Positions 778-61,640 of a stretch of DNA of 64,000 bases are shown here, one piece after another. Under the pieces are notes generated by a model that worked only from the letters and a program-made list of their open reading frames with translations, was not told the origin of the DNA and ran no database searches. The first letter of the stretch is position 1. Each line of letters begins with the position of its first letter. The DNA lies in assembly GCF_036971445.1 (NCBI RefSeq), contig NC_091481.1:10540001-10604000 (forward strand), read 5' to 3'. Position numbers and translations under genes: made by a program. The DNA is from Narcine bancroftii. Taxonomy: Eukaryota.

Positions 778-977
778 CAGCTCCTCATAGTCCTTTGGAT
801 GAGCTGAGGTATAACCATAAGGAATTAGTAAGAGCTGGGAATAGCTATGAATATCAATGAAAACTTTGAAATTTCCATGGTTTGTGACAAAGTCAACAAT
901 GGCTTTGACTTCTTTCTCAGAATTGACAAAAGGTCCGTGGTACGTTGCTGAGCAAGAACTGGAACTGGCTCCAGGCC
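778..977 (-). CDS. CPA1: Procarboxypeptidase A gene A, exon 9 ([67 protein letters not shown]); exons 10-11 lie outside the window
   Basis: 200-nt exon with ag/gtaagt boundaries and the His196 HSYSQ motif; paralog assignment (A1 vs A2) is uncertain. Confidence 0.93.
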
Positions 978-1115
978 CTGTTAATTAAAATGAACGTGTA
1001 AGGTTTACTAAAAACAAAAACTGCAGACGCTTGAAATTTGAAATAAAAATTTTTAAATGTGCAAACACACAACAAGTCACCCAGTATCCATGGAGAGAGA
1101 AATAACATTTCAGAT

Positions 1116-1300
1116 GGCAGAGTTGGCGTAGCAGTTAGCGTAATGCCTTTCCAGTGCCAGCGATCAGGACCAGGGCTCAAATACCATGCTGTCTGCAAGG
1201 AGTTTGTACGTTCTCCTCGTGTCTGTGTGGGTTTTCCCTGGGGGCTCCAGTTTCCTCCCACTATTTGAAACGTACTGGGGGTTGTAGGTTAATTGTATGT
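1116..1300 (+). mobile_element. tRNA-derived SINE (HE1/V-SINE-like)
   Basis: A/B-box-like head plus V-domain-like core ggagtttgtacgttctcctcgtgtctgtgtgggttttcc. Confidence 0.75.
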
Positions 1301-1782
1301 ATATAAAATAAGCTGTTTAGTCTGGTCTTCCCTTAAATCCTTTGTTCATTCATTGTCCATTTAAACACTCAATAATATTCAAGCCGTATCTGACCCCCAG
1401 TTAGCAATAAGTTACAAACAAACCATCCAAACCTATTTCAGCCTGTCAATTATTTTGCTGTTTGTATTTGAAAAATAAGCTTTCATTTGCCTTATCTTTG
1501 TAAAAGAGCGTATCTGCTTTTTTTTCTCTCCATGGGATCCAGATTGCACTGGAAATGGATCTTTATATTCCTTGATCTATATATTGTGAATTAATTTCAA
1601 ATGAGGCTAAGCAGACTGATTGTTACACATTACACAGTTTCCCCATAATTCTTCCGACACTCTCAGTAAAATACTGGAAGTAATATAAATGCAAGGAAAT
1701 GTAAATACTTCATATCTGGATTATCCTGAATTTGCAGTTTTAGAATCCAAAGTTTATATCAGGGTACACAGTGTAGTCTTAC

Positions 1783-1873
1783 CTCCAAAATTAGCATCAA
1801 AATTCCTGTTTGGGTCAACTCCATGACAATTCATGCCAGAATACTTTGACCTGGTCTTGCGCCACAAACGGTT
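1783..1873 (-). CDS. CPA1: CPA gene A exon 8 ([30 protein letters not shown])
   Basis: 91 nt, ag/gtaag; Arg127, Asn144 and Arg145 present. Confidence 0.95.
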
Positions 1874-2079
1874 CTGTTAAAAAATTATTATTTGTACCTA
1901 TTGAACCAGCTTCTAAAATGGAAATTAATCCCATCTTCCATTATCTATTAAATTTCAGAAACTATTACAATCTTTTCTCCCTATTCAATCTTCAGGGCTA
2001 AGGCTAATGCCTGATTCAGTTAATTTCTCAGTGAATTCTGTCTTTCAGACCACTCTACATGCTATGCATCTGGTGAAAC

Positions 2080-2215
2080 ATGGAAGTCTGCAGACGTTGC
2101 GATTGTAGTCAAAACACAAAAATAATGGAGGCACTCAGCCGGTCTTGCAGCATCCATAGGAAGTAAAGATACCTTATCAATGTTTCGGACCTGAGCCCTG
2201 CCTTAAGGTATGAGT
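2080..2215 (-). mobile_element. Penelope-derived terminal repeat with degenerate hammerhead motif
   Basis: Minus strand ctcataccttaaggcagggctcaggtccgaaacattg followed by the family hairpin arm. Confidence 0.55.
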
Positions 2216-3214
2216 GAGTTTAACTGTTTAAACCATATTAGTCTCAACAGAGGCCATACGTCCCACCCCACACAACCCCCCCTCCCAACCTGAGGGATAC
2301 AGCATTGTTTAAGGGGGACTAACATCCTTAAGTGGGGCCCAAGGTGTATAGGAGGCATGGAAACTGAATGGATTAAACATTTTCGCAGAAGGAAAGGACT
2401 CTATTGCAAGGCTTTGCTGTTTAATTGCCATGTAACGTGAGATGTTTTCAAGGTTGGAGACAGCCTAGAATGACAGAAAATTAACAATGTTTCAGAGCGC
2501 TTCTTGCTTTGACTTGATTGTGTTTGACTGACATAGCTTTGACTTTAAATTGCCTTCCACATAGTTTTCCTCATTTGTTCAATTCCAGGATATAAGCATG
2601 CAGCCCAAAATGTTTTGTTCCATATTTCTTGCATCCACAAATGCCCTCATGTTGCTTTGAGTTTTCATGATGGGTAAGTGAACACCTCCTACCTTTTATT
2701 GAAGAAGGTATGTACTGTTCATTTATTTTCCATAAATACTTTTGTAATAGTTAATTTTTGTTACTTTCTGAAATAATTTTACCCATGAATTTCTGGGGAT
2801 AAGGAACTAATGGAGGCCCAAATTATTAGGTGAACCACATTTGGTTTCTAATATTTTACTTATCTGGAAAGGCTAGAAATGGGAGCTTCGGAGTTGTTGG
2901 GTTTGGAGGTGCCCAAGGGATGAAAATAGTTCAGTGATAGAAGGAAAGTCTGAAGCAGATATGTTAAAGAAATGAATGTATGTATTCTTGATGATGGTTA
3001 GAAGAGGTTTTGAAGCTCTGCAATACATTGAATGCAAGACGACAGTAATTTTATTCAGGCTGACAAAGCAACCAAGCTGGTAGAAACAAGGTAAAAAGAA
3101 ATCAAAATGTTCTGCCACTGAGTTCTAACATCATTGCCTTCATCGTTCCATTATTTTGTTTTTATTACTTATTTCTAACATCTGCAGTATTTTGCTTGTG
3201 TTTATTGTACTTAC

Positions 3215-3325
3215 ATAAGTGTGGGTAAAATAGAAACCATCAGGGTTTGTAACAATCTCAAGGTAGAAATCCATTGTTTTCAGGAGTGAAGTTAAAGAAC
3301 TATCACTGCCATACTCACTGGCAAC
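3215..3325 (-). CDS. CPA1: CPA gene A exon 7 (VASEYGSDSSLTSLLKTMDFYLEIVTNPDGFYFTHTY)
   Basis: 111 nt, ag/gtaagt, NPDG motif. Confidence 0.95.
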
Positions 3326-3889
3326 CTTGGTAAGAGACAAAAAAAATTGATTATTTTAGAGCTATTATACAGCAGTGGGACATTGCTCTCTCTAAATTCA
3401 CCCCATAGCTCCTTATTGTTCTGTTGCATTTATCATCTCTGTATCTGAACTTAAATTGTGAGTGTCAGGAGGTTATTTGGCTGTGGAGATGAATGACAGC
3501 CAATCCTCTTCCTGCCCTCATTTGATTTCCACCAAGCATTTTCCAGTAGACTTTCACCAGCCAGTAAACAGCACTACCTACTGCATCTTTTTTTAGGCTC
3601 CATAAGGTTACCCTCAAAAGTGTACACTCTGTTGGAAGTACTCATCTGAAGTTAGGCAGCAGCTACGTTGTGCTTGGGTTACCAATGCTGATTTGATGGG
3701 AATTATGGTGATGTCAAAGGAGAATTCATACCATTTTCCTTCTATCATTACTTTACTTTCATCCCCTCCTTGATTGATTTTGATGGGGCTTACTTGTACA
3801 GAAGAAAGTAATAGGAAAGAGAGTTTTGTAAGATTATACAAAATGAGATCTTGCCATTATTCTTATAAATACATTTGTCTCTACCATAC

Positions 3890-3991
3890 CTTGTTGGCAA
3901 ACCAGAGGGCTGTAGCTGGACTAATCCATTCTCGGGCATGGATTCCAGAATTGATCCAGATAGCAGGTCGGTTGATCCCACCAGTGCTGAA
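3890..3991 (-). CDS. CPA1: CPA gene A exon 6 ([34 protein letters not shown])
   Basis: 102 nt, ag/gtatgg, Zn-binding HxxE (His69/Glu72). Confidence 0.95.
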
Positions 3992-4409
3992 CTGTGGAAA
4001 GACAGGTGAGTGGCATTGTCACAAAGAGTTGGCTAATGGTGAATTGTTTCCTTTAAAATTATTAGGTACTTGTCCTGCATATGTATTATTTGTCTGTATA
4101 TGTCTGGTTGTGTGTCTGTGCGTTTTGTACCGAGAACACTGTTTCATCAGGTTGTACTTGTACAATTAGTTGACAATAAACTTGACTTGATTTTAGGTAA
4201 TTATTTATAGCCAGGGTATCAAATTGGGTGAGATTGTTAGAAGGTGGGTGTATGTAACAAGGCTTTTTTGGAATGTGGACAAGATGAAAGAGTGGCCAAG
4301 TACAGAGGTGGAATATCATGTGGAATGATGAGAAGTTACTCACTTTACAGAAAAACACAGAAAAGCAGAGCACGCTTTTAAAAAGGTTGAATGATTGAGA
4401 ACTGTTGAT

Positions 4410-4658
4410 TTTTAAAAATTTTTTAGACATGCAGCACAGTAACAGGCCCTTTCAGCCCATGAGCCTATGTTGCCCAATTACAACCAATTGACCTACATCC
4501 CAGAATGTTTTTGATAAGTTGGAGGAAACCAGAGCACCCGAGGGAAACCCATGCAGAAATGGGGAGAACGTTCAAACTCTTTATAGACAGCATTGGATTT
4601 GAACCTCGTTTGCTGGCATTGTAACAGCGTTGTGCTAACTGCTACACTAATCATGCCA
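4410..4658 (-). mobile_element. tRNA-derived SINE (HE1/V-SINE-like)
   Basis: Reverse complement of the 1116-1300 family. Confidence 0.7.
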
Positions 4659-5099
4659 CCTTGAAAGGGATCTGGGCACAATACACAAATTCCTGAGAAT
4701 GAGTATGCAGGTGAAACAAGCAATTAGATGGCAAATAGTATGCACTCCTTTTATTTGAATAGAGGAATAAAAATAACATTGCAGTTATATACAATATGAC
4801 CATAGTGAGTAATTGGTACTGTTCTGATCTTGCACACACCTACCATAGTAGAAGTACAATGAAGATTTTTGAGACTGGTTTCAAGGATAGCTAGTTTGCT
4901 GTATGAGGAAAAATTGAACAGACTATGCCTCTATTCTCTCACATTTAGAAGCAGGGAGGAAGTTTCCCCAAGCTCAGAAGTCTACAAATACAGATCTTAA
5001 TCTCAGAAAAGGGGAAATGCAGTTTAGGATTGAAATTAAAAACATTTCTTCATGCAGGGTAGAGTAAACTTTTGGAATTCTCTCCATTATTGCCTCTCA

Positions 5100-6438
5100 T
5101 TGCTGCAGTCAGAGTTTCCACCTGCTTCAAAAGGGCATCAATCATCCTGGAACCCAAGAAGAATAATATGAGCTGCCTCAACAACTACCACCCAGTAGCA
5201 CTCACTTCTACAGTGATGAAATACTTTGAGAAGCGAGTCATGGCCAGAATTAACACATATCTAAGCAAAGATCTGGACACACTGCAATTTGCCAATCATC
5301 AAGATTGCTCAACAGAAGATGCAATATCACTGGCTCTTCACTCAGCTCTAGATCACCTCGAAAAAGGCAATTCATACATGTGGCTGCTCTTCATTGACAA
5401 CAGCTCAGCCTTCAATACCATTATTCCCTCGAGAAGCTACAAACTTTAGGCCTCTGTACCCCCCACTGCAACTGGATCCTTGACTTTCTCATCGGAAGAC
5501 CATAGTCAGTACAAATTGGAAACAATGTCTCCTCTTCACTGATTATCCACATAGATGCACCCCAAGGATGTGGGCTTAGCCCACTGCTCTACTCGTTATA
5601 CACCCATGACTGTGTGGACAGACACAATTTCAATGCCATCTACAAGTTTGTTGATGACACCACAGTTGTCGGCAGAATCACAAGCAGCAATGAGGAGGGA
5701 GAGAGGTCAGCTCGTTGAATGGTGTAACGACAACAACCTTGCGGTCAACATCAGCAAAAACAAGGAGATGATTGTGGACTTCAGGAGGGAGTCATGGGAA
5801 CATGACCCAGTCCTCATTGAGGGCTCATTAATGGAGAGGGTTGAGAAATTCCAATTCCTGGATATCAACATCTCCGAGGATCAGTCCTGAAATCACAAAG
5901 AAGGCTTGCAAGCAGCTATATTTTGTGAGGTTTCTGAGGAGATTTGGAATGTCACCGAAGACTCTCGTAAACTTCTATAGGTGTACTGTGGAGAGCATTC
6001 TGGTTGGTTGCATCACTGCCTGGTATGGAGACGACAACTCTCAGGTCAAGAATAAACTCCAGAGGGTTGTTAACTTGACCTGCGACATCACAGGCACCAG
6101 ACTTCACTCCATCGAGGACATCTACATGAGGCGGTATCTTAGAAAAGCAGCCTCTATCCTCAAAGACCCCCACTTCCCAGGCCATGTCCTCTTTACTCTA
6201 ACACCATCAGGGAAAAGGTGCAGGAGCCTAAAGACGAGCACTCAATGGCACAAGGACAGCTTCTTCTCCGCTGCCATCAGATTCCTGACTAAGACTCTGC
6301 CTTACTTTTCGTGCACTATTATTTTTATATTTTTTATAATAATGTTGTAAGATGGTTATAATGTGAATGTTTGCACTATGATCCTGCTGCAAAACACCAA
6401 ATTTCATGACTTGTTCATAACAATAAATTCTGATTCAG
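5100..6438 (+). mobile_element. Rex1/Babar-type LINE, 5'-truncated and decayed RT
   Basis: Fragmented ORFs CLNNYHPVALTS..LQFA..STEDAI..SSAFNTI and NFYRCTVESIL..ASILKDPH; AATAAA plus microsatellite-like tail. Confidence 0.85.
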
Positions 6439-7266
6439 GTTCAAAGAGCTGCAGTGTCTACCATTAAGTTCCACTGAGATTGGTAAATTTGTAGATATTA
6501 GAAGGATGCAGACAAGTTGCAGGAAATGACAATCAAGTAGATTATGTTTCTTCGAATATGGTAATATCAGTGGTTTGCCATGGTAATAGTGTACATTACT
6601 CCCTTTGGAAAACTTTGGAACATGTGTCATTTCCAATACCTTCTCAATTTAAGATGAAGATATCATGTTTATATCATTACTTTACTCGAAAAGTAAATAA
6701 ACTGCATTATCACCTCTTGTAGCACCAATATCATCATGTCTGGCTATTATAGTGATATTTAGAGGTCTGATTTCATACACTTAGGGGTCAAAAACAAACC
6801 CAAACTTTGTACTATGGTCTCTCCAACATTGGACAGACCTTTGGAGGAGCAGTTCTCCCTGCCTCATTTGAGGTTTATTAATAAATCTACACAATTTACA
6901 AGCATCCAAGAAAAGCAGACCTGGTTCCTGTTCCAATAAAACAGCTATTAAAGGCATAATGTCATCATCCTAGGATGTTGAAATGTTGTTTCATCTGAAA
7001 TCATTTTGAATACTTTGGAGCTTAGTACTCGCTCTCAATGTAAGCTTTTGTTGAAAATGTTCTTTTTTTAAAAAAAAAAGGTCCAATTCCTATGGTGCGG
7101 CACTCTTAGCAAGATATCAAGAAACTCTGAGGACACACTGTGGGGTCTTTATTTTAATCACAGCAGCAAGTTTGTGCCAATTTGTTTGTCAGTTGATGCT
7201 ACATTGTGGGAATTCTGTTCAGATAACACAGGATTCAATGGTAAATCATCACCAGTTTATACCAAC

Positions 7267-7368
7267 CCTGAGGATGTAGATTGGCCGATTTTCAAACGTG
7301 GTACCAATCTGTACCTTGCTGACCAGGTCTGAGTTTGAAGCCACAAATTTGTCCATCCAAGCATAGAT
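7267..7368 (-). CDS. CPA1: CPA gene A exon 5 (IYAWMDKFVASNSDLVSKVQIGTTFENRPIYILR)
   Basis: 102 nt, ag/gttggt. Confidence 0.93.
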
Positions 7369-7972
7369 CTAGGGATGAGATGATGGAAATGAGTCAATTT
7401 GGTTTGTTTTTACCAGTAAGATGACCTTGTATTGTCTCCCTGAATTGTATTTTCTTAGCCAAGAGTACGGGTGATGTCTTTGCATCACTAGGAGGCTGAA
7501 TGGTTTCTAGAAATGGCCTTTCATTTTGGTTTGGAGGTCATTTCCAATCTCCACCTTATAAATTTGGAATTTGACCGCAGTGGTTTTCAAAGTAAGGCAG
7601 AAATCTGCTTGCAACCAATTGCAGCACAGTGAATCTCCAGTAGAATTTGTCACTTGGCCATTCATTGAAACCAAGTTTAAATGATATGAGCATGTGATTT
7701 AAGGATAAAGAAGTCACCAAGAAATCCATCAAAGTCTAATGTCTCTTCATTATTCATGATTGACCAATGGAATGGAGATGGAATATTGAGGATGTCAGCA
7801 TTTGGAGGTGGGGTGAAGTTGATCAGGCATGCAAAACTGAAAACAAAGTCTTTCCTTGAGGTATTATGTTCACATGTCTTGTTTTTCTATCCTACCAGCA
7901 GTGAAATAATTTTTAAAAATCATAACCATTTTATAATTGAAATATTTTTTGGTATTCATTGTTTGACTTTAC

Positions 7973-8071
7973 CTCCTCCAATGTGTGATAAGCAGCATAG
8001 TTGAATGTCTGGGTGCTGCGCTCCTTACGCTGAGACAACAGCATTTCCTTCTGCTCATCGTCCAACAATGC
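7973..8071 (-). CDS. CPA1: CPA gene A exon 4 ([33 protein letters not shown]), activation junction
   Basis: 99 nt, ag/gtaaag; RSTxTFNYxxYH as at the N-terminus of mature CPA1. Confidence 0.93.
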
Positions 8072-8189
8072 CTGAAAGGTCAACAGCAGATCATTGACAC
8101 CCTGATAGTAATATTAACTGTCAATAGAAGAACCAGTGTCAGTTCAGAACAATAAGTATGAAGCATAATGACCAGATGAAAGACTGTAC

Positions 8190-8324
8190 CTGGAGATCTT
8201 CAACCATTATAGAGTAACTAATGCCATGGAACTCCAGGAAAGCTTTCACTGATTGGCTATGTTCACTCGTGACATGGATGTCAATAGGCACCAATGGGCT
8301 GTTGGATTCTTTCCAGATATCTAA
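8190..8324 (-). CDS. CPA1: CPA gene A exon 3 (LDIWKESNSPLVPIDIHVTSEHSQSVKAFLEFHGISYSIMVEDLQ)
   Basis: 135 nt, ag/gtacag; propeptide LDxW..D..V..EDLQ pattern. Confidence 0.93.
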
Positions 8325-9549
8325 CTAATGAAGAGAAATTTATAGTTACTAGCAAGGCTGTAGGCTCTGGCAGAAACAGAAAATTTATCAAACAATGGAA
8401 TGTTTGTTTTGTGCCTTGAGCATTGAACATACAAAAAAGTGCATGTTAAACTAAATATGCACAAGGCATTTTGTGATGCAGCCTGGCAGATCCTTTGGAG
8501 TGCTAGGGGAATGCCTCATTGTTGGAAGTGTTCTTTGAATAGGAATCTGAGGCTACATCTCCCTCAGGTGACTGAGACCACATCTTCCTCTCAGGTGGGC
8601 ATAAATAATTCTTTGCAAATATTTATGCCTCAATGAACTTTGCTAAACCGACCTTGTGATCATTATCAGATTCTGTTTATGGAAGTTTGCTGCATGCAGA
8701 TTGCCACAATAGAGTAAGATAGTTCATTTGGTGTAAAGCATCTTCAGAAGCCCTGATGTTGGGAACAAAGCTAAATAATTCCTGGTTTCATCTTCGTTTG
8801 TCTGGCTGCTGTTCAATATTATGCAGTTTGAGGAATTAATTACAGGAGGTGCAATCACGGTAATGGGAAATGTCCCATGTAGGTCTATGGTTGTACCAAA
8901 GCTGAGGGGTTAAAGTTATGAAGGGAGACTTGAAACACAAGGATTATTTTTTGACTTAGAGTGGTAAAAGTGATAGTGTAAGTTGAAAAGTCGAGATTTT
9001 GAGTGTCTAGGACAAAATGAATAAGAGATTATTTCCAATGGGTGGAGGGTCATTATTGTAGAACTCCCAGAATACTACCCAAAATCTGAAAGTTTCCATT
9101 AATCCTTCTTCGCCATAGTTCAACTGAATCACCTGGATTCCAGTCTTTAGTGTTAAGAGTGTAGAAGGTCTGAACCAGAGCCAAGACTGCACAGGTCCAA
9201 CTTATTTTTTGTATTTATTTACTGTAATGGAAGATTGCCTGAACTATGAAGTGTTTTACTTTAGCGTATAAAACATCAAAGACCTCAGGACAGGTCATCA
9301 GCGGGGTTGAAAAAAAATGGAGAAAAGTTAGTGAAAATCAGAGCATATAGGTATAAAAACACAAACATCTGGAATGATTCAGCTGATCAGGCAGCTTTCT
9401 TTGGATAGAGAAAAATAAACCAGGGCAGTGATACAATTTAGTGTCTACCTCCTTGACTATGCAGGAAAACAAAACTTCAGTGTTTTACCATTGAATTTAC
9501 TTTTATTTGTAATGATTCCATTTATTTATACTCACATGTAGCAACTTAC

Positions 9550-9631
9550 ATGCAAATGCTCTTCTTCCTGAAGGGACCTCACTAGGGCGAGCTGTGCCTC
9601 ATTGTTGACAGTGATCCGTAGAACCTGGTCA
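9550..9631 (-). CDS. CPA1: CPA gene A exon 2 (DQVLRITVNNEAQLALVRSLQEEEHLH)
   Basis: 82 nt, ag/gtaagt, DQVLR motif. Confidence 0.93.
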
Positions 9632-10468
9632 CTGTGTAAGAAAATGAATTGAATCTTTCACACTGATCATTGCCCCACATAAGAGGTCATTCTTCACCAG
9701 CAGCTGAATGTGCAGCATTATGTGCTGAGTATTGGTAGCATCAAGTGACTCATAGCTTTGAGGTCTATGTTCATATGCAGTGAATTGGACATCAGCAGGT
9801 AAACAATTACCTCCAGTTTCACGTTCTTCTTTATATATTGAAAGTAAAGTGTCTAGTCCGGCATAATATATTTTCCCAACTCCATGCCCAATTTCTTCAC
9901 CAAATTCTCCAAGTTTTGGTGAAGCAAGGACGAGATGTAAAATAACACTACCACCATTAATCCATTGATGAGTATATCTGGTATAAACTTTAGAGTACAA
10001 ATTGAAGTCACGTGCTATTCCAAAGCACTGCAAAGGAAAGACTGGAACTACATTTGTAAATGGCCCAGAGTTCTTGTTCCCTTTCTCCAGTTAATCTATG
10101 CTCAGTTCTAAGTCCAGTATGAGTTCAGAGCACACTGAGGTTTGGTGGTGGGATAGGGTGGGGGCAGAGCTCAGGTGAAATTAGTCAGAGAGGTTTGCTG
10201 TGAATCGCCAGCTTATTTTTGAATGGAAGCAATTCTCTGGAGAAGAAACAAGGTTTTTGTGTAAATGACTCCATTCTCTTTGTAGCCATTAATTCAACCT
10301 CACGTGTTTGGGATGTAAATCACCAACCAGTACCATGAAACTGTCAGTAAAAGGGTGTAACGCTGCAGCAAGTGAGTGAACAATAATTCGACACAAGGCA
10401 AGCAAATTCCAGATTCATTGCTTTACCATTTGTCTGGATTCTTATGCTCCACAAAAAAAGTTACTCAC

Positions 10469-10533
10469 CCAATGAATGTCTTCTTGCAATAAACAGCCAG
10501 GAGAAAGATACTGAGGATCAACAGGGCTCTCAT
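10469..10533 (-). CDS. CPA1: CPA gene A exon 1, signal peptide (MRALLILSIFLLAVYCKKTFIG)
   Basis: ATG at 10533, 65 coding nt, gtgagt donor in phase 2 matching exon 2. Confidence 0.93.
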
Positions 10534-19082: not shown

Positions 19083-20218
19083 ATGGGCAACACAACACAT
19101 ATTCCACAAGTACATTAATTCAATGGCAAGCCATGGTGCTTTCTGAAATTGCTTCTCATTTTAGCCCTTTCACTGTTTACCCTATGCACACTTTGGCCTA
19201 TGCTCTATTACAAAGAAAGTTAAAAGTCAATCTTATTTGGGAGGAATACTTTCAATCAGATTAAAAATATGACCACCATGGAGAATACCAATGATGTTTC
19301 AAAATGTGTCCCAGAATGAAGACTATGAATTATTCAAGGCCATTAGATCGTCCAAAGGCTTATGGACAATTTCCCCAGTTGGGAGGCTTGGTAATCAGAT
19401 GGGACAATATGCAACTTTATTTGCTTTGGCCAGATTAAACTCAAAGCAAGCCTACATTTTCCCAGCAATGGCAAATTACCTGTCTCAGAACTTCAAGATT
19501 ACACTTTCTACTCTCCATCAAGAGGTTAAAGACAAGATTCCTTGGAAAAACTATCATCTTTCTGACTGGATGGAAGAAAAGTATAAACATATCTCAGGAG
19601 ATTATATTAAATTCTCAGGATATCCATCTTCTTGGACTTTCTATCACCACATCTGGGAAGAAATCCTTTGTGAATTTTCTTTTCATGAGTTCACCACAAA
19701 GGAAGTCACCTTGTATTTACAGAAGATTACAGCACGACGTCAAAATATTACATACATTGGCATCCATGTTTGGAGAGGAGATTACTTGCATGTTATGCCC
19801 CAGAAGTGGAAAGGTGTGATTGGAGATTTTAAAAAACTACTTGGCACAGGCCATGTCCTACTTCAGGAATAAATACAAGGATGCTTTCTTCATAGTGGTA
19901 AGCAATGGAATTGACAGGTGTAGTGAGAATATAGATGCCTCCAAAGGGGATGTCTACTTCTCAGGAGATGGGAATGAATCAAAGCCACATAGAGACTTTG
20001 CCATTCTTGCTCACTGCAACCACATCATAATGACCATTGGCACATTCGGATTCTGGGCTGCTTACCTAGCTGGTGGGAAGGCTGTCTACCTTTCAAACTT
20101 CACTTTGCCCAGCTCACCCTTCTTAAATGTGTTTAAATATGAGGCTACTTACCGGCCAGAATGGATTGGAATTGATGCCAATCTTTCACCTCTTCTAGTC
20201 AAGACACTTAAAATTTGA
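19083..20218 (+). pseudogene. Galactoside alpha-1,2-fucosyltransferase (GT11, FUT1/FUT2/Sec1-like) pseudogene, single coding exon
   Basis: Type II TM LKLLLILALSLFTLCTLW; motifs GRLGNQMGQYA, HV(W)RGD and [11 protein letters not shown]; in-frame TAA at 19116 and 19221; frameshifts near 19300 and 19830; acceptor cttttttag at 19019; AATAAA at 20274. Confidence 0.88.
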
Positions 20219-28770: not shown

Positions 28771-29689
28771 GCCCACTGTTCTGTTGGAATGGAGAATTTC
28801 TTAAAGGTTTCTAACAATATCTCCAAAAACTCAATTCATGCTACTGAGTAGTCTTTTACACATAATAAATACAGTTGCTTATTTTTCAGTTACTGTGTTA
28901 TTTTTTCACCCAATTCTGAGCCAAAGATGACAGGGTCATGGTCTGTTTGCCTTCTTAGAGGATTTGACTTCAGAGCAACATTTTCTTGTTCCAAATACAT
29001 TCAATGTTGGTGAGTCCACATCCAGAAAATAGTGCAGATGCCTGGTCTTCCTATCTGAGAAAGAATTTGCTCGTGATTCAAGGGAGTGCATTGAAGATTC
29101 CCACAGGGTTTTTGTTTTTCCGAAATAAGATGAAGTAGGCTTGGCATATCTTCTCATGAGTTCAGACAAATGACTGGTGATCTCATTGGGACTTGTAACA
29201 TCCTCCTGGGGCTTGACAGAGGAAATGCAAGTGAGATAGATGACCATTGCCAAACAAATCCCTTAGCTGGGATCAAGGGCTCACCGCCCCAAAATAAATA
29301 GACATTTTAGTATTGAAATGGGAACAAACCCAGAGAGTAATTATCTTGGGATTCCTTGTGAAGTCGACAACGTCTGTTCACTCGATCAATCTATAGACAA
29401 GTACGAAATAATCAACGAATAGGGCATGAGAGGAGGAAGGGCAGCCATGGTCAATGGCGGGAAGATGAGGGGCTGAACGGCCCCTACTTTTGAAATGTCT
29501 TCTGGATGTTCCTGCTTTCAAAGATCACCCAAGTCAAATTTACGAGGACTTGTTTTTGTCTGTCCCAGCAACAAACATGCTCGAACGCCGTGCAGGTTGA
29601 AGAGAACGACGCTTAATCTGGCAGCCGAAGGAGAAATGGTTCCAGAATTTTCGAAAGCCTCATAAATCAGATGCCACACCCTGGGGGCT

Positions 29690-29960
29690 GAGGACTTTGC
29701 GCCGAGTTAACTGCGAGCTCGACAGGCGTCCGGCTCTCGTGCTCCCTTGCACAAGGTTGTGTGGGGGAGCAGGAAGGCGGCAAGTTTGCCCCCCACTCCC
29801 CGGGCCAGCACCGACCTTGAGCGCGGCCCCGGCCCCGACAGCACGCGGGAACTGACCTTGGTTGACGGCACGCGCGCTCCTGCCGCCGACTGCGGCCGCT
29901 CCTCGCTGCCCCGGGCTGCCCACGGAGTCCGGAGGCGCCACGGGGCTGAGGTGAGTGCAT
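29690..29960 (+). promoter_or_regulatory. CpG island promoter and probable non-coding first exon of CPA gene B (donor GAG|gtgagt at 29950/29951)
   Basis: Dense CpG, consensus donor, and a matching orphan acceptor ttcttag|ACAATG 3 nt before the gene B ATG. Confidence 0.65.
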
Positions 29961-31444
29961 TCGGGGTTTCTGTTTATTATGGTGGATGGAGCGGGCTGTT
30001 GGTTGGTTTCGTGAGGCCATGTGCCCTGCTTGGCCCGTTCACCTTCAGCGATTTGCCCTGCAGAGGTGACTGGGGTGGGGGGGGAGAAAGAGAGAGCTTG
30101 GATCAACAGGACCTAGAGTTGGGTAAAGATGGAGATGCTTGTGGTGGGTCATGATCACCAAATTGTTGTCACCATCACTGGCAGTGCCAGCATTTATTGC
30201 CCATCCCTCACCTCCCCCTGCTGTCCTCTCACACTGCTGTTGGGAGGCAGTTCCAGGACATGGACTCCGTGTGAGTGGAGAACCTGATTTCCAAATCAGG
30301 GTGATGGGCAACTTGAAAGGATCGGGTGTGCCCTTGTTCTTCTTGGGAAAGGGGCTGGTTTAGGAGGTGCTGTCAGGAAAGTTTAGGTAACTGTGATGCC
30401 CGTTAAAGAGAGGTGGTGCAGGCAATGAATGCTTCAGGTGGTAGTAAAAACACAATGTTGGAGAAACTCAGCAGGTCAATCAGTGCATTGTATCTGATAC
30501 ATAAAGAATGTTTCGGGCTTCAGCCCTTCATCCACAGTGTCTGCAGACTTTTGTTTTGCTTCGGGTGATGGATTGGGTACCCAGGGTGTATAGTCCAGTT
30601 GTAATTGCCTAGTCAAGTGGAGATGATTCTATCACACTTAGTTTGTGCATTAGAGATGGTGATAATACCTTGAGGTGTCAGGAGCTGTGTCACTTGCCCA
30701 GGATATTGGCAATATTGAAGTGCCTAGTCAAGTTATGTTCTGGTCAATATTAACCCTCAGGATGTTCATAGTTGAGGGAAGGCCTTGGTAATGCCATTGA
30801 ATATCAAGGGTGGGCAGTTAGATGACCATTGTCAAACATATCTTGCCTAAAGTCCATACTTGAATGCTGGCTTGATTTTGCGAAGTGAACTCATAGAATG
30901 CTTTATTTGCTGAGGAGTAAAAATGGAATTAAATATTGTGTGATCAAACATATATGTACAGATTCTTGTGTTTTGTCATACTGATCGAAGCAAACAGGGG
31001 GTTAAAGTGAAGCACAAATCTGCTCCCAGCTGCATTTCAGTTCCAGATTAATCAACTCCATACTCCATGGTTCTGTCTTTAAAGAAACAGCAGGGGATAG
31101 AAAATTCACTTGATCTATGGTCAGATCTAGATCTAATCCATGCTCCAGAGACTTGAAGCGATGCCAACAACTTTGAATGTTCTGTAGCCAGGAGATAATA
31201 AAAGTTTCTCCCACATCCAAACCCCACATCAAAAATTAAAGAACTGAAATTTTAGATGTTCAGTATTCTCTTTTTGCTCATGTTTACATGACTGATTAAT
31301 GCCAGCAAATCACATATGGAACAGCATCAAGATGTGCTCTTCATAGGGCAGCTAGTTATTACTGGGATCTTCTAAACAAAAGCTGGAATGCTTGCTAGCA
31401 TTGGTTAATTGACTCTTACTGCATTTTTTAACTGCAACATGCAT

Positions 31445-31845: not shown

Positions 31846-32568
31846 TGACAGGCAAAATTTAACCAAATAGTAAGATGACTGACAATATCAAAATGTTTAA
31901 TTTTAGTTTGGAGAAGAGCGATGTGGAAGGTTTGTTTCTTGGGGGAATTCCAGAGCTTGGCTGCAAACTAAAAATGGGTCTGCCTCAGAGAGCAGAAATG
32001 GGAGGGGTAGGGCACAAAGATCTTAAATGGTTGAAGAAATTATGATTTCAGAGAGAAGATGAGTTCGTGGAGGTACAAATTAAAGGAGAGAATTTTCATA
32101 TTGCTGTATTGATGGTTAGAAGCTTTTGGTGGTCACCATTGTCAGGTGGGAGGTGTGCAGGGGGATAGGGTTTGACAAAATTAGGTCATGGACAGCAGTT
32201 TTAGTTGAGCACCAAATGAGAAAGGTGAGAGACTGGTTTGGAGAATAGTCGAGTCAGAGGTTAAAATATGCTTCAGCGGCAGGTGATAGGCAGCAGCAGA
32301 AAGCAATAGTTGTTTGGCAGGGAATTCACTGAGCTGGTGATAGGAAGGATGTGGGGCTAGAGGCTTAGCTCAAAATGAAGCAGGAACTTTTAGCATTAAT
32401 TCCTCAGGAATGCACTGATCCAGGGTCAGATTGGTCTTGAAAATGTCAAAAACCCATTGGAGACTCCATTTAATGGAAACTATGGTAATGAAAATAGTGT
32501 TTAAATTACCAAATACGTTTGTGTGACGTTAAGTGACACTGCTTTCATGTTCTTAAACTTCTTAGACA

Positions 32569-32636
32569 ATGAAGACATCCTGGCTCTTCCTCAACATTGT
32601 TCTTGTGGCTGCTCACAGACAGGTAACTTACAATGG
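32569..32636 (+). CDS. Procarboxypeptidase A-like gene B, coding exon 1 (MKTSWLFLNIVLVAAHRQVTYNG)
   Basis: ATG in ACAATGA, signal-peptide-like, gtaagt donor in phase 2. Confidence 0.85.
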
Positions 32637-34702: not shown

Positions 34703-34784
34703 TGACCAGGTGCTCCGGATCACTGCCAGCAATCAGAAGCAGCTCAATCTGGTGAAGTCCTTGGAACAATTGGAGCATCTGAAG
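34703..34784 (+). CDS. CPA gene B exon 2 (DQVLRITASNQKQLNLVKSLEQLEHLK)
   Basis: 82 nt, ag/gtaatt. Confidence 0.93.
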
Positions 34785-36289: not shown

Positions 36290-36424
36290 TTGGATTTCTG
36301 GAAAGAACCTGAGAGGAGCTCCCTCCCCATTGACCTACGGGTTCCTGCGAAGCATGTCAACAGAATCAAAAGATATCTGAAGTCTAAAGACATTACATAC
36401 TCTATCATGATCAAGAACCTACAG
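36290..36424 (+). CDS. CPA gene B exon 3 (LDFWKEPERSSLPIDLRVPAKHVNRIKRYLKSKDITYSIMIKNLQ)
   Basis: 135 nt, ag/gtaatc. Confidence 0.93.
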
Positions 36425-42352: not shown

Positions 42353-42451
42353 TCATTATTGGATAAAGAGCGCACAAGCACATTGATTTCTGAACTGAGA
42401 TCAAATGGAACCTACAGCTTCAACTATAGGACCTATCACTCATTGAAAGAG
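42353..42451 (+). CDS. CPA gene B exon 4 (SLLDKERTSTLISELRSNGTYSFNYRTYHSLKE)
   Basis: 99 nt, ag/gtgaga, FNYxxYH motif. Confidence 0.93.
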
Positions 42452-45200: not shown

Positions 45201-45302
45201 ATTTACAAGTGGATAAAGAATCTTGCTGCTGAAAACCCACATTTGGTCAGAAGAATGAGAATTGGTAGAAGTTCCCAAGGTCGGGCACTTCATGTCCTTA
45301 AG
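45201..45302 (+). CDS. CPA gene B exon 5 (IYKWIKNLAAENPHLVRRMRIGRSSQGRALHVLK)
   Basis: 102 nt, ag/gttagt. Confidence 0.93.
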
Positions 45303-46287: not shown

Positions 46288-46386
46288 TTCAGCACGGGTC
46301 GCAGGCGTCCTGCTGTGTGGATTGATGCTGGTATTCATGGCCGTGAGTGGATAGCACCTGCTGTGGCAATATGGATGGCAAAGAAG
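46288..46386 (+). CDS. CPA gene B exon 6 ([33 protein letters not shown])
   Basis: 99 nt, HxxE Zn motif; ends at a GC donor AAG|gcaagt. Confidence 0.92.
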
Positions 46387-46625
46387 GCAAGTGGATTTCT
46401 GCAGCCCTTTCATTCACCAGATCATCCTGTCACATGCCTTAAGGTTTAACTCACTCCAATTCCTGCTGGTAAATGCAAGTAAAATACTCCAGTCTTAAAT
46501 GAAAGGCCTTCTGTTAACTCTGCTTGTGCTAGCCGTTTGGCAAAGTTAGCCCCTCACCCAATTTTTACCCATAACCTTGTTAATCAGTTCCTCTTAAATA
46601 TGGTTAATGGTTAGCATAGCAGTTC

Positions 46626-46944: not shown

Positions 46945-47055
46945 ATTACCACTAACTATGGCAGTGACCCCTCCATCACATCACTGCTGAATAAAATGGA
47001 TATCTTCATGGTGATCTTGGCAAACCCTGATGGTTATGTATATAGTCAAACTAAG
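46945..47055 (+). CDS. CPA gene B exon 7 (ITTNYGSDPSITSLLNKMDIFMVILANPDGYVYSQTK)
   Basis: 111 nt, ag/gtatgt, NPDG motif. Confidence 0.95.
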
Positions 47056-48633: not shown

Positions 48634-48724
48634 AACCGCATGTGGCGGAAAACAATGTCCAAAACTCATGGAACTCATTGTTTTGGAGCTGATCCAAACC
48701 GGAATTTCAATGCAAACTTTGGAG
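48634..48724 (+). CDS. CPA gene B exon 8 ([30 protein letters not shown])
   Basis: 91 nt, ag/gtgggt; Arg127, Asn144 and Arg145 present. Confidence 0.95.
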
Positions 48725-48907
48725 GTGGGTAATTGCTTCTGATATTCTAAATTTTCAATTATTATTTGCATAATATCCCATGACTTCTGAACTCGGTCAA
48801 ATTAGCCCGCTTTCAGGTTGTTCAATTCAAGAAAGTAAATAGCTTTGTACTGACTTCAGCTGATGCTTGGACTTAAATCTTCAACATCATATACATGAAA
48901 TGATAAA

Positions 48908-50045
48908 GAGTCTGACACAGAGCCTGAAGAATGATGCAGAGCCTGATACAAAGCCCGAAGAAAGATACGAAGCCTGGTACAGAGCCCGAAGAAAGATACG
49001 GAGCCTGGTACAGAGCCCGAAGAACGATACGGAGCCTGGTACAGAGCCTGAAGAATGATACGGAGCCTGGTACAGAGCCCGAAGAACGATACGGAGCCTG
49101 GAACGGAGCCCGAAGAATGATACGGAGCCTGGTACGGAGCCCGAAGAACGATACGGAGCCCGAAGAACGATACGGAGCCCGAAGAACGATACGGAGCCCG
49201 AAGAACGATACGGAGCCCGAAGAACGATACGGAGCCCGAAGAACGATACGGAGCCCGAAGAACGATACGGAGCCCGAAGAACGATACGGAGCCCGAAGAA
49301 CGATACGGAGCCCGGTACGGAGCCCGAAGAACGATACGGAGCCCGGTACGGAGCCCGAAGAACGATACGGAGCCCGGTACGGAGCCCGGAGAACGATACG
49401 GAGCCCGGAGAACGGTACGGAGCCCGGAGAACGATACGGAGCCCGGAGAACGATACGGAGCCCGGAGAACGATACGGAGCCCGGAGAACGATACGGAGCC
49501 CGGAGAACGATACGGAGCCCGGAGAACGATACGGAGCCCGGAGAACGATACGGAGCCCGGAGAACGATACGGAGCCCGGAGAACGATACGGAGCCCGGAG
49601 AACGATACGGAGCCCGGAGAACGATACGGAGCCCGGAGAACGATACGGAGCCCGGAGAACGATACGGAGCCCGGAGAACGATACGGAGCCCGGAGAACGA
49701 TACGGAGCCCGGAGAACGATACGGAGCCCGGAGAACGATACGGAGCCCGGAGAACGATACGGAGCCCGGAGAACGATACGGAGCCCGGAGAACGATACGG
49801 AGCCCGGAGAACGATACGGAGCCCGGAGAACGATACGGAGCCCGGAGAACGATACGGAGCCCGGAGAACGATACGGAGCCCGGAGAACGATACGGAGCCC
49901 GGAGAACGATACGGAGCCCGGAGAACGATACGGAGCCCGGAGAACGATACGGAGCCCGGAGAACGATACGGAGCCCGAAGAACGATACGGAGCCTGATCC
50001 AGAGCCCGATCAATGATCCAAAGCCTGATACAGAGTCTGAAGAAT
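48908..50045. repeat. 19-bp minisatellite (GGAGCCCGGAGAACGATAC)n with 30-bp older units at the left edge
   Basis: Directly visible; about 30 near-identical core units at about 49381-49970. Confidence 0.97.
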
Positions 50046-52465: not shown

Positions 52466-52665
52466 GAAGTGGAAGCAGCAGAGTTCCATGCTCAGAAAGT
52501 TATTGTGGACCATATGCACATTCTGAACCTGAGGTCAAAGCTATTGTCAATTTCATAAAGAAACATGGTCATTTCAGAGTTTTCATCACACTCCACAGCT
52601 ACTACCAGCGTTTAATGTATCCATATGGATATACCCGGAAAACTCCTGAAAATGTCAAAGAACTG
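52466..52665 (+). CDS. CPA gene B exon 9 (GSGSSRVPCSESYCGPYAHSEPEVKAIVNFIKKHGHFRVFITLHSYYQRLMYPYGYTRKTPENVKEL)
   Basis: 200 nt, ag/gtatga, His196. Confidence 0.95.
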
Positions 52666-53598: not shown

Positions 53599-53683
53599 GA
53601 TATGTTGGCTCGTGAGGCTACTGAAGCTCTCATCTCGCTGTATGGCACTCGATATACCTATGGAAGCATCATACAAATTATAA
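53599..53683 (+). CDS. CPA gene B exon 10 (DMLAREATEALISLYGTRYTYGSIIQII)
   Basis: 85 nt, ag/gtaagt. Confidence 0.93.
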
Positions 53684-54357
53684 GTAAGTTGTGCATCAAG
53701 AACAATGATGGGCTTTACTTCATTTAAAAATTTGGAAAGTCTAGCTGCAACTGTAAGTTGGGTTCATGTAGTTCTTTTTATTTTAAAAAAAATGAAATTC
53801 TGGGCATGCTATTATCACAATTTCTTTCTGGGGTTCTGTAATGAACTTGGAAAATTTACCCTGACTTTGAGAATGGAATATAATATAGGGAAAGGAACAC
53901 TTGCTTTCTCATGTTGGGTTTTGTCTTTCTCTAATAGCAAGAAACTAAAATTCTTTTTAAATCTGTAAACCCACCAAAGGACAAGTAGTTCTGACCTGTG
54001 GTTATACCCACTTATGGGAGTTGGCTTTAAATGACCTGGCCTTCTTGGATCAAACTCTAACCTGTTAATGCTGCATTATGTGTCGTGAGACACTCTATGA
54101 TTATGCAAATAATGTCATTTTTACAAATTTATTTCCAATACAATTATAGTTACAAAAAATTTTCAGCATTTAGTTGGCTATTTCAGTCTTACACAAGTTT
54201 GATAGATATTAGATAGTTGAACTCCATGGTCATCACATTTGCTAATTTTCTTGATTAAAAACAGAAGGCTGGAGAAACTCAGCAGGTCAAACACTGTACT
54301 TTATATTAGCAAAGATAAAAATATATAACTAAGCACTATTTTTCTTCCCAACTTCAG

Positions 54358-54545
54358 ATGAGACAAGTGGGAACAGCATTGACTGGAGCTATAACCAAGG
54401 GATTAAGTACTCGTATGCCTTTGAGCTGCGTGATGAAGGTCAATATGGCTTCGTGCTTCCACGGAGTCAGATTGTTCCAACAGCTGAAGAGACATGGTTG
54501 GCTGTAAAGATAATAATGGAGCATGCTTGCAATCACTTGCCTTGA
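54358..54545 (+). CDS. CPA gene B exon 11 ([62 protein letters not shown])
   Basis: 188 nt to TGA; Ile255 (A-type) and Glu270; exon lengths sum to 1260 nt = 419 aa plus stop. Confidence 0.95.
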
Positions 54546-60430: not shown

Positions 60431-60829
60431 GGTTGACATTTAATGTTTAAAAATTGATGAGAATGCAAGTCATCGTGGTTGAAGTAAAAACACAAGGCTG
60501 GAGAAACTCAGGTGGTCCAACTATATAAAGATACTTTATATAGCTTCATGAAGATATGAAAAATTGTCGACAGGTGCCTGTTTTAACCATTTGGCGGGGG
60601 TGGGGGGGGGGTTTGAGTGCCTGCAGACAATTCTCCTCATCTTAATGAAAGAAAGGCTCAAGCCCCAAAAGGTTGGGTTATGTACAGGTATGTCTTTGCT
60701 ATATAAAGTACACTGTGTTTTGACATGGATGACATGAGAGGTGTAAAAAAAGTTTTGAACGGTTTTCTTTTGTAAATAATAAAGCATATTTTTGGATAAT
60801 TTAAAAAATAAGGACAACTGCACTGAGTG

Positions 60830-60915
60830 AGCACAGGGCGGAACTGGTGCACGTGAGCGTCCTGGGCAAGGAGACGACGTCACCAGCACCGCCGCCGCGC
60901 GCAACGTTCGGCCTG

Positions 60916-60948
<33 letters not shown>

Positions 60949-61330
60949 AGGAGGGGCGGGACAGTATCTGGCAGCGCAGACACACAGAGACCGAGTTCCA
61001 GGCCTTCGGCGCAGCCGCTCTAAGGTTAGTGCGCACCGCGCATTCTCCAAATTTCGGCCCTGGCGCAGTCGCAAATCGGCTCCCAAAAGCCGCCCGGTCG
61101 CACAAAGGGGTGTTTTACTTCATAAAAGGACGAGAAGGAGCCCCCCCAAAAGTGGCCTTTGCACGGCGGGGAAGGGCTGAAGCTGCAGCGGCAAGAGGGT
61201 GGAGGCCGCAGTGGGCCTGCCTGTTTGCCGGGCTGGATTTTGGCGGGACGAAGCCGGGCGGGGGGTGGGGGGGTCGGGTGGAATAAACTCTTGAGCATAG
61301 GGCCGGGAGCAAGGTTCCTGCGGTGTGGGC
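60830..61330 (+). promoter_or_regulatory. CpG island promoter and probable first exon (donor AAG|gttagt at 61024/61025) of an unidentified downstream gene
   Basis: GC boxes, CACGTG at 60850, CRE-like GACGTCA at 60876, (GA)13 tract at 60915-60940, high CpG density. Confidence 0.6.
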
Positions 61331-61640
61331 TCTGGGGTCCAAATTTCTGTGGAGGCATTTCCTGAAATGGTTAATGTTTCAGAATTCATTCTTGCAGCAT
61401 CTCAGCTGTTAAATATTTCTCATCAAAATGGGTCCCAGGGTGGAATTCTTAAACAGTCCTGTATTTCAAGATTTGCTGAGTAATAATTCAACTGTTGTGT
61501 GTTTAAAGATCAATAACAAATCGTACAGATGGGCCTGCAATTTAACAGAATTGAAAAAAAATCAAGATTTATTGTGATTGATTATATGTGGCATAACTAG
61601 GCCGGGTGGGGGGGGGGGGCTCAATTTTGCTTTTAGTTCA

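Follow-up and report, generated by a model that had tools for sequence, protein, structure and literature searches.

What becomes of a carboxypeptidase A (CPA) that gives up the tyrosine lid of its active site, Tyr248, and keeps its catalytic residues? A gene of Narcine bancroftii raises this question within the window that we analyzed, a stretch of 64,000 nucleotides (contig NC_091481.1, positions 10,540,001 to 10,604,000) in which codon 248 reads as asparagine and opens an N-glycosylation sequon. An earlier note on this DNA had offered three options for the gene: a selected pseudo-enzyme, a glycan-gated enzyme, or an enzyme with new specificity. We call the gene paralog X; it is a third CPA paralog of sharks and rays, alongside paralogs A and B. 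Its features and the adjacent paralog A are as follows, in window coordinates.

29501..30000, plus strand: CpG island (GC 0.60), likely promoter of the lidless CPA gene, with its first non-coding exon region
32566..32636, plus strand: coding exon 1, with ATG at 32569 and a signal-peptide-like segment; splice acceptor just before
34703..34784, plus strand: coding exon 2, pro-domain
36290..36424, plus strand: coding exon 3, pro-domain, D-F-W motif retained
42353..42451, plus strand: coding exon 4, activation junction, Arg116 followed by the sequon N118-G-T (42404-42412)
45201..45302, plus strand: coding exon 5
46288..46386, plus strand: coding exon 6, with His69, Gly70 (clade-fixed), Arg71, and Glu72; GC donor
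46945..47055, plus strand: coding exon 7
48634..48724, plus strand: coding exon 8, with Arg127, Met130 (Arg130 lost clade-wide), Asn144, and Arg145
52466..52665, plus strand: coding exon 9, with Ser154, His196, Tyr198, Tyr199, and Arg201
53599..53683, plus strand: coding exon 10, whose last base, A, opens codon 248
54358..54545, plus strand: coding exon 11, with the rest of Asn248, then Glu249, Thr250, Asn253, Ile255, and Asp256
54358..54545, plus strand: coding exon 11, continued, with Ala268, Glu270, Glu274, Gln276, and the stop
778..10533, minus strand: paralog A, a canonical CPA with Tyr248 kept, head to head with paralog X; ATG at 10533

The 11 coding exons, from 32566 to 54545, equal the RefSeq protein P0003 ('carboxypeptidase A1-like', Narcine bancroftii) residue for residue, and no stops or frameshifts were found across the 11 exons mapped to it. 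Mature numbering was set by aligning P0003 to human CPA1 (5om9_A), which places N363 at human Tyr358 (mature Tyr248), M245 at Arg240 (Arg130), Y314 at Ser199, and R316 at Leu201. The available portion of PMC9779553 names Tyr358 of CPA1 among the S1' residues. Exon 10 (53599-53683) encodes DMLAREATEALISLYGTRYTYGSIIQII plus one base, A, ahead of a GTAAGT donor; its end (...ATT ATA A, then gtaagt) and the start of exon 11 (...ttcag, then AT GAG ACA) together spell codon 248 as A/AT, asparagine. Spliced contigs from 4/4 runs, which belong to one study and whose kind is recorded as a guess ('RNA?'), join 53683 to 54358 and skip 53684-54357 as a GT..AG intron, with the exons covered continuously. 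No letter other than A was listed at base 53683 in these contigs, which rule out an assembly or splice artifact there. The 3' UTR was covered to at least 55600, and the exon 6 splice donor is a GC (window 46386-46387).

Genomic letters and spliced contigs agree with the earlier note on base 53683 and on the split codon. Its statement that all 11 exons are intact, along with His69, Glu72, His196, Arg127, Asn144, Arg145, and Glu270, also stood, and these seven residues recur in 22/22 orthologous species. The further differences that it listed are real, but T268A and N253 are not unusual, occurring in 62/203 and 7/203 ordinary CPAs, respectively. S199Y was seen in Narcine bancroftii alone.

A CpG promoter had likewise been proposed, and the island at 29501..30000 can be linked to an annotated 5' exon. 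CpG observed/expected is 0.88 in the island versus 0.31 for the whole window; RefSeq isoform P0122 has its leader at 30129-30143, with a GT donor after it, and isoform P0003 has an upstream mini-exon at 32473-32484. Paralog X has a CpG-island 5' end and upstream exons; in paralogs A and B the first exon carries the ATG and is preceded at a short distance by a TATA-like element. Intron 8 holds a CpG-rich tandem array (window 48899-50044, periods 19 and 31) that is open in several frames and mimics a CpG island. In Hemitrygon, Hypanus, and Mobula, the RefSeq isoforms P0126, P0131, P0155, P0256, and P0258 have exon 11 replaced by other ends and therefore lose the C-terminal part holding Glu270.

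Exon 11 has eight matches in the genome, three of them on this contig (paralogs X, A, and B). Exons 10-11 of paralog A fall immediately before the window start, and paralog B lies ~400 kb downstream of paralog X. Paralogs A and B both encode Tyr248, because exon 10 ends in T in each. Orthologs of paralog X occur in 22 species (9 batoids and 13 sharks, not counting unnamed transcript contigs and extra isoforms) and form one clade with full support. The residues at 248 in these species are N (10 species), D (5), G (3), S (2), H (1), and K (1); tyrosine occurs in 0/22. Tyr248 is present in 20/20 readable paralog A proteins, in 7/7 paralog B proteins, and in 200/203 other vertebrate CPA sequences, the three exceptions resembling faulty exon-10 models. 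A change private to this species is ruled out, and Asn248 is not a product of chance or assembly error, since all 22 orthologous species lack Tyr248. Judged from these sequences, paralog X is an old gene under purifying selection. Its automatic naming as 'CPA1-like' conceals a distinct paralog.

The age of this lineage was assessed relative to the chimaera split. No chimaera ortholog of paralog X was found among the matches listed, and the available supplement of PMC9925722 holds two elephant-shark CPA genes, one A-like and one B-like, both with Tyr248. An AU test rejected the view that paralog X arose from elasmobranch paralog A once the chimaeras had branched off (p 0.005); it did not reject a grouping of X with B (p 0.35), and a grouping of X with A has no more than 89/95 support. 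Given this rejection, paralog X may be older than the chimaera split and later lost, or left unannotated, in chimaeras. The protein P0400 was ruled out as a chimaera ortholog, as it groups with ray-finned fish CPAs; it is CPA-like with His69, Arg127, His196, and Tyr248 all replaced, and is likely an independent pseudo-enzyme. Paralog A also occurs in Callorhinchus. Asp194 is characteristic of it and, like Cys268, is found throughout, and Glu163 is replaced (mostly by Ser) in 19/21 copies, unlike in paralog X, where Glu163 is present in 22/22.

Other loci surround these genes. Between the two CPA genes, an intronless alpha-1,2-fucosyltransferase-like gene (Pfam GT11) lies at window 19273-20218 on the plus strand; it is split over two frames near 19830, with more stops upstream, and is probably a pseudogene, an assembly indel being possible. 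Another CpG island spans window 60751-61500, with NRF1 exons (Pfam Nrf1_DNA-bind) downstream at L014-L017. Beyond paralog B lies a DUF3402 (STRIP-like) exon (L023). These NRF1 and DUF3402 surroundings resemble the human CPA-cluster neighborhood in a different order, and paralog X lies near an apparent inversion breakpoint.

By domain content, fold, and the seven catalytic residues, paralog X is a member of the M14A family. Both the pro-domain (PF02244, E 1.5e-21) and the M14 domain (PF00246, E 8.5e-103) are present, and a structure model of pLDDT 86.6, whose input alignment consisted mostly of canonical CPAs, reaches a TM of 0.91 to procarboxypeptidase A (1pca); an initial model built on 16 sequences reached only pLDDT 63. 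The zinc ligands His69, Glu72, and His196 occur in 22/22 species, as do Glu270, Arg127, Asn144, and Arg145. Because Tyr248 occurs in 0/22, we file X as an M14A variant and not as a canonical CPA1. The Y248A mutation reportedly brings a roughly 100-fold loss. Activity is judged by seven residues in the accessible text of PMC9925722, and Tyr248 is not among them. In the sections available of PMC3940198, Tyr248 is a binding aid whose mutation leaves kcat and raises Km on small substrates, and Ala250 and Gly253 shape S1'; Cho et al. 2001 is cited there as giving Tyr248 a catalytic role, with which the citing authors disagree.

Paralog X resembles several known systems without coinciding with any of them. 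It shares with pancreatic CPA1/A2 (PDB 5om9, 1pca, 1aye) the pro-domain and M14 domain, 52-54% identity, a TM of ~0.9, the seven catalytic residues, and Ile255, but differs in lacking Tyr248 and Arg130, in having Gly70, Asn253, Glu274, and Gln276 fixed, and in its 2-5 sequons per protein and CpG-island 5' end. The elasmobranch paralogs A and B share its contig, the same split codon 248, and a similar overall rate, whereas they keep Tyr248, have a nearly invariant lid loop, and carry few sequons. Engineered Tyr248 mutants (Gardell 1985, Cho 2001, as described in the available part of PMC3940198) likewise keep the catalytic centre, have had the hydroxyl of the lid removed, and are active with raised Km; X, in contrast, is natural and old, has no aromatic ring at 248, and has further fixed changes. 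The M14 pseudopeptidases covered by the accessible text of PMC11266112 (AEBP1, CPXM1, CPXM2, CPD-III, and Ecm14) are similarly conserved with an altered active site, but in them a zinc ligand, Arg127, Arg145, or Glu270 has gone, and X loses none of these. Duplicated vertebrate CPA/CPO genes, as surveyed in the portion available of PMC9925722, provide a precedent in M14A for duplicates that take on a new function while under purifying selection; that survey centers on residue 255, and its 'shark' rows are two elephant-shark genes, both with Tyr248.

We also compared paralog X with distant M14A proteins, for which 148 representatives (two listed clade members set aside) gave 200 domain alignments, 147 of them with all key columns filled. 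The seven residues are kept by 136/147 domains, and 15 of these 136 lack Tyr248, three having Phe instead. Because about one in ten distant M14A domains thus lacks Tyr248 with the catalytic set intact, the state of paralog X is less surprising than it would otherwise be. These domains are uncharacterized, show ~35-40% identity, and do not belong to the vertebrate CPA clade, and some resemble poor gene models. One of them, P0430, resembles X in keeping the seven residues, in lacking Tyr248 and Arg130, and in having Gly70 and Gln276.

Constraint is distributed unevenly over the protein. The seven catalytic residues together with Arg71, Asp142, Tyr198, Asp256, and Phe279 have 0 changes in 22 species. 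Besides the seven, 110 sites are invariant in A and B, and 69 of these are retained in X, which gives a chance of ~0.04 that all seven would be retained, or 0.155 when the zinc ligands are treated as structural and only the four non-zinc catalytic residues count. Over 300 mature columns in 19 matched species, parsimony assigned 333 changes to X and 299 to A, and the pro-domain had 122 changes in each (18 species). Since its overall rate is close to that of A, paralog X is not decaying. The picture differs at the rim, which we represented by 39 non-catalytic inhibitor-interface sites taken from Table 2 as available in PMC13388685, partly from CPB complexes. Rim sites have 81 changes in X versus 31 in A and the other 254 sites 252 versus 268 (Fisher p 4e-6, with sites that are not independent and a site set applied after the fast sites had been seen), which amounts to ~2x the changes per site at the rim relative to the rest in X and no such excess in A. 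The lid loop, residues 245-250, has 26 changes in X and 2 in A.

Some positions have instead settled on residues of their own. Gly70, Met/Leu130, Ser156, Asn253, Glu274, and Gln276 are fixed in X, and Arg201 mostly so. Arg130 is found in 201/203 ordinary vertebrate CPAs, and the literature searched yielded no data on variants at R240 of human CPA1. Ile255 occurs in 22/22 X species and makes an A-type floor of the pocket (hydrophobic, A-type specificity), whose wall holds Asn253 and Ser, Thr, Asn, or Arg at 250. A cationic surface, to which the earlier note had drawn attention, was rejected as a clade trait: mature pI ranges from 6.7 to 9.5 across the X clade, and Narcine bancroftii is highest.

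Does a glycan take the place of the lost lid? On this proposal, an N-glycan attached to Asn248 would stand in for the tyrosine and regulate entry to the active site. The sequon is real, spliced, and found as N248-x-S/T in 8/22 species spread over rays and sharks; that of Narcine bancroftii is N-E-T, and Thr sequons are usually better occupied. Against this, the sequon is absent from 14/22 species and differs within the close pairs Hypanus/Hemitrygon, Carcharodon/Cetorhinus, and S. canicula/S. torazame. To explain its distribution, the species tree needs at least 7 events of gain or loss, or 9 losses by parsimony if it was gained once. With 8 changes, site 248 is the 5th fastest of 300 (246 is 2nd and 199 is 6th), and 6/8 of the sequons are N-E-S, which are poorly occupied. 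The earlier note had Y248N and A250T jointly creating N-E-T, but only the sequon itself is upheld, not the need for two changes: Y to N alone suffices, because Ser/Thr250 is present in 19/20 readable copies of the Tyr248-bearing paralog A. We accordingly rejected sequon 248 as a selected feature, and its presence in 8/22 species at the 5th fastest of 300 sites leaves a gate at 248 unsupported and, in our estimation, very unlikely. N248-x-T is not common to the orthologs; the conserved trait, as far as the aligned proteins indicate, is the missing Tyr248 and not a glycan site at 248. The sequon would have arisen incidentally, from Asn occupying an exposed site released from constraint ahead of an existing Ser/Thr250.

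Other sequons are kept far more widely. A junction sequon, N118-G/D-T, is present in 21/22 X proteins, 2/21 A proteins (one residue further on), and 0/7 B proteins. It sits 1-2 residues past the Arg found at the human activation site in the alignment (Arg116, aligned with human Arg110, in Narcine bancroftii); the connecting segment has no Lys or Arg in 3/22 species. A rim sequon, N154-G-S, occurs in 18/22 X orthologs and is missing from Narcine bancroftii (Ser154), and 21/22 species carry at least one of the two sequons at 154 and 248. Each X protein has 2-5 sequons overall and paralogs A and B have few. The skate orthologs P0132, P0133, and P0134 have an N197-Y-S sequon directly after the zinc ligand His196, occupancy of which seems unlikely. 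In the Mobula birostris model P0254, 15 residues at the activation junction are duplicated, which doubles the N-G-T sequon.

How, then, should the conserved loss of Tyr248 be understood? A decaying duplicate, or an error of assembly or annotation, might be suspected from the several aberrant RefSeq isoforms; the base and junction in 4/4 runs, the intact orthologs of 22 species in one fully supported clade, and an overall rate close to that of A refute it and leave it a negligible probability. A pseudo-enzyme or permanently locked zymogen, one that binds C-termini or a partner, is rarely or never activated, and turns over no substrate, is a more serious contender, albeit fairly unlikely. Such a protein could have lost both Tyr248 and Arg130 and freed its lid and rim, it could tolerate a sequon flanking the activation site (21/22 species) or the absence of a basic residue there (3/22), and it would accord with isoforms lacking exon 11 in three ray genera. 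Yet the M14 pseudopeptidases tabulated in PMC11266112 (Table 2, as far as available) have all lost at least one of His69, Glu72, His196, Arg127, Arg145, and Glu270, and none of these is lost in X in 22 species; moreover, a pure binder would have little use for Glu270 and Arg127.

The fast rim raises a further possibility, namely an enzyme that evades inhibitors. Here the rim would be driven, with the loss of Tyr248, the changes at 11, 14, 199, and 246, and the rim glycans at N154 and N248 all serving escape, and the agents evaded would be protein inhibitors of parasites, prey, or host; an insect CPB that resists inhibitors (PDB 2c1c) offers a parallel. Five of the six fastest sites (11, 246, 14, 248, and 199) are listed inhibitor-interface positions, Tyr248 is a contact in 5/5 simulated complexes in the available part of PMC13388685, the rim excess is confined to X in the comparison with A, and the 154 or the 248 sequon is present in 21/22 species. 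However, protein-level counts fit relaxation and positive selection alike, and exposed sites are fast anyway. The complementarity of 154 and 248 is also weak, as one species has neither sequon versus ~2.5 expected by chance. We regard this inhibitor-evading enzyme as unlikely.

The reading that we favor, and hold to be somewhat probable, is that paralog X is a specialized, probably active, lidless glycoprotein carboxypeptidase that is probably not a pancreatic digestive enzyme; its activity, specificity, glycans, and tissue we infer from sequence. The putative product would be a secreted, N-glycosylated zymogen that binds zinc, anchors the C-terminal carboxylate with Arg127, Asn144, and Arg145, and cuts with Glu270. 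It would have lost both its Tyr248 lid and the constraint that acted on the funnel rim, and fixed pocket and rim residues of its own. As a general peptidase, such an enzyme would be weak and show a high Km on the standard substrates of CPA; its own substrate may be narrow or small, ending in a hydrophobic residue at the C-terminus. The enzyme would probably act outside the pancreas, a role suggested by the CpG-island 5' end with upstream exons and by the several sequons. Activation by trypsin may be slowed by a glycan on the junction sequon, which lies just past the activation Arg. Among the three options of the earlier note, new specificity is thus the best, because an old gene evolving under purifying selection has lost Tyr248 clade-wide and kept its catalytic residues; the glycan gate falls away, and the pseudo-enzyme does not agree with published residue criteria. 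Several considerations count against an active enzyme: joint loss of Arg130 (201/203 elsewhere) and Tyr248 could cripple catalysis, keeping the four non-zinc catalytic residues by chance is not a small probability (0.155), three species lack Lys and Arg in the connecting segment, and Cho et al. 2001 are cited as assigning Tyr248 a catalytic role. It is also conceivable, if rather improbable, that this is an old lidless lineage under junction-glycan control, perhaps working as an uncleaved zymogen on small substrates, with its rim driven by inhibitor escape.

We found no description of paralog X in the literature searched, which was mostly non-subscription; a comparative CPA3 paper by Akula and colleagues could mention it. 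A catshark pancreas paper (PMC4362833) lists CPA1 and CPA2 only in its available text, and two of its supplement files have no mention of CPA. Whether Tyr248 serves catalysis or binding only has been argued from point mutants since 1985, according to the accessible sections of PMC3940198. Among sharks and rays, paralog X is a natural vertebrate CPA without Tyr248, its position 248 being taken by six different residues, and the Tyr248-bearing sister enzyme in the same animals is its control. This makes the Tyr248 question directly testable, and paralog X may yield an inhibitor-resistant or narrow-specificity carboxypeptidase.
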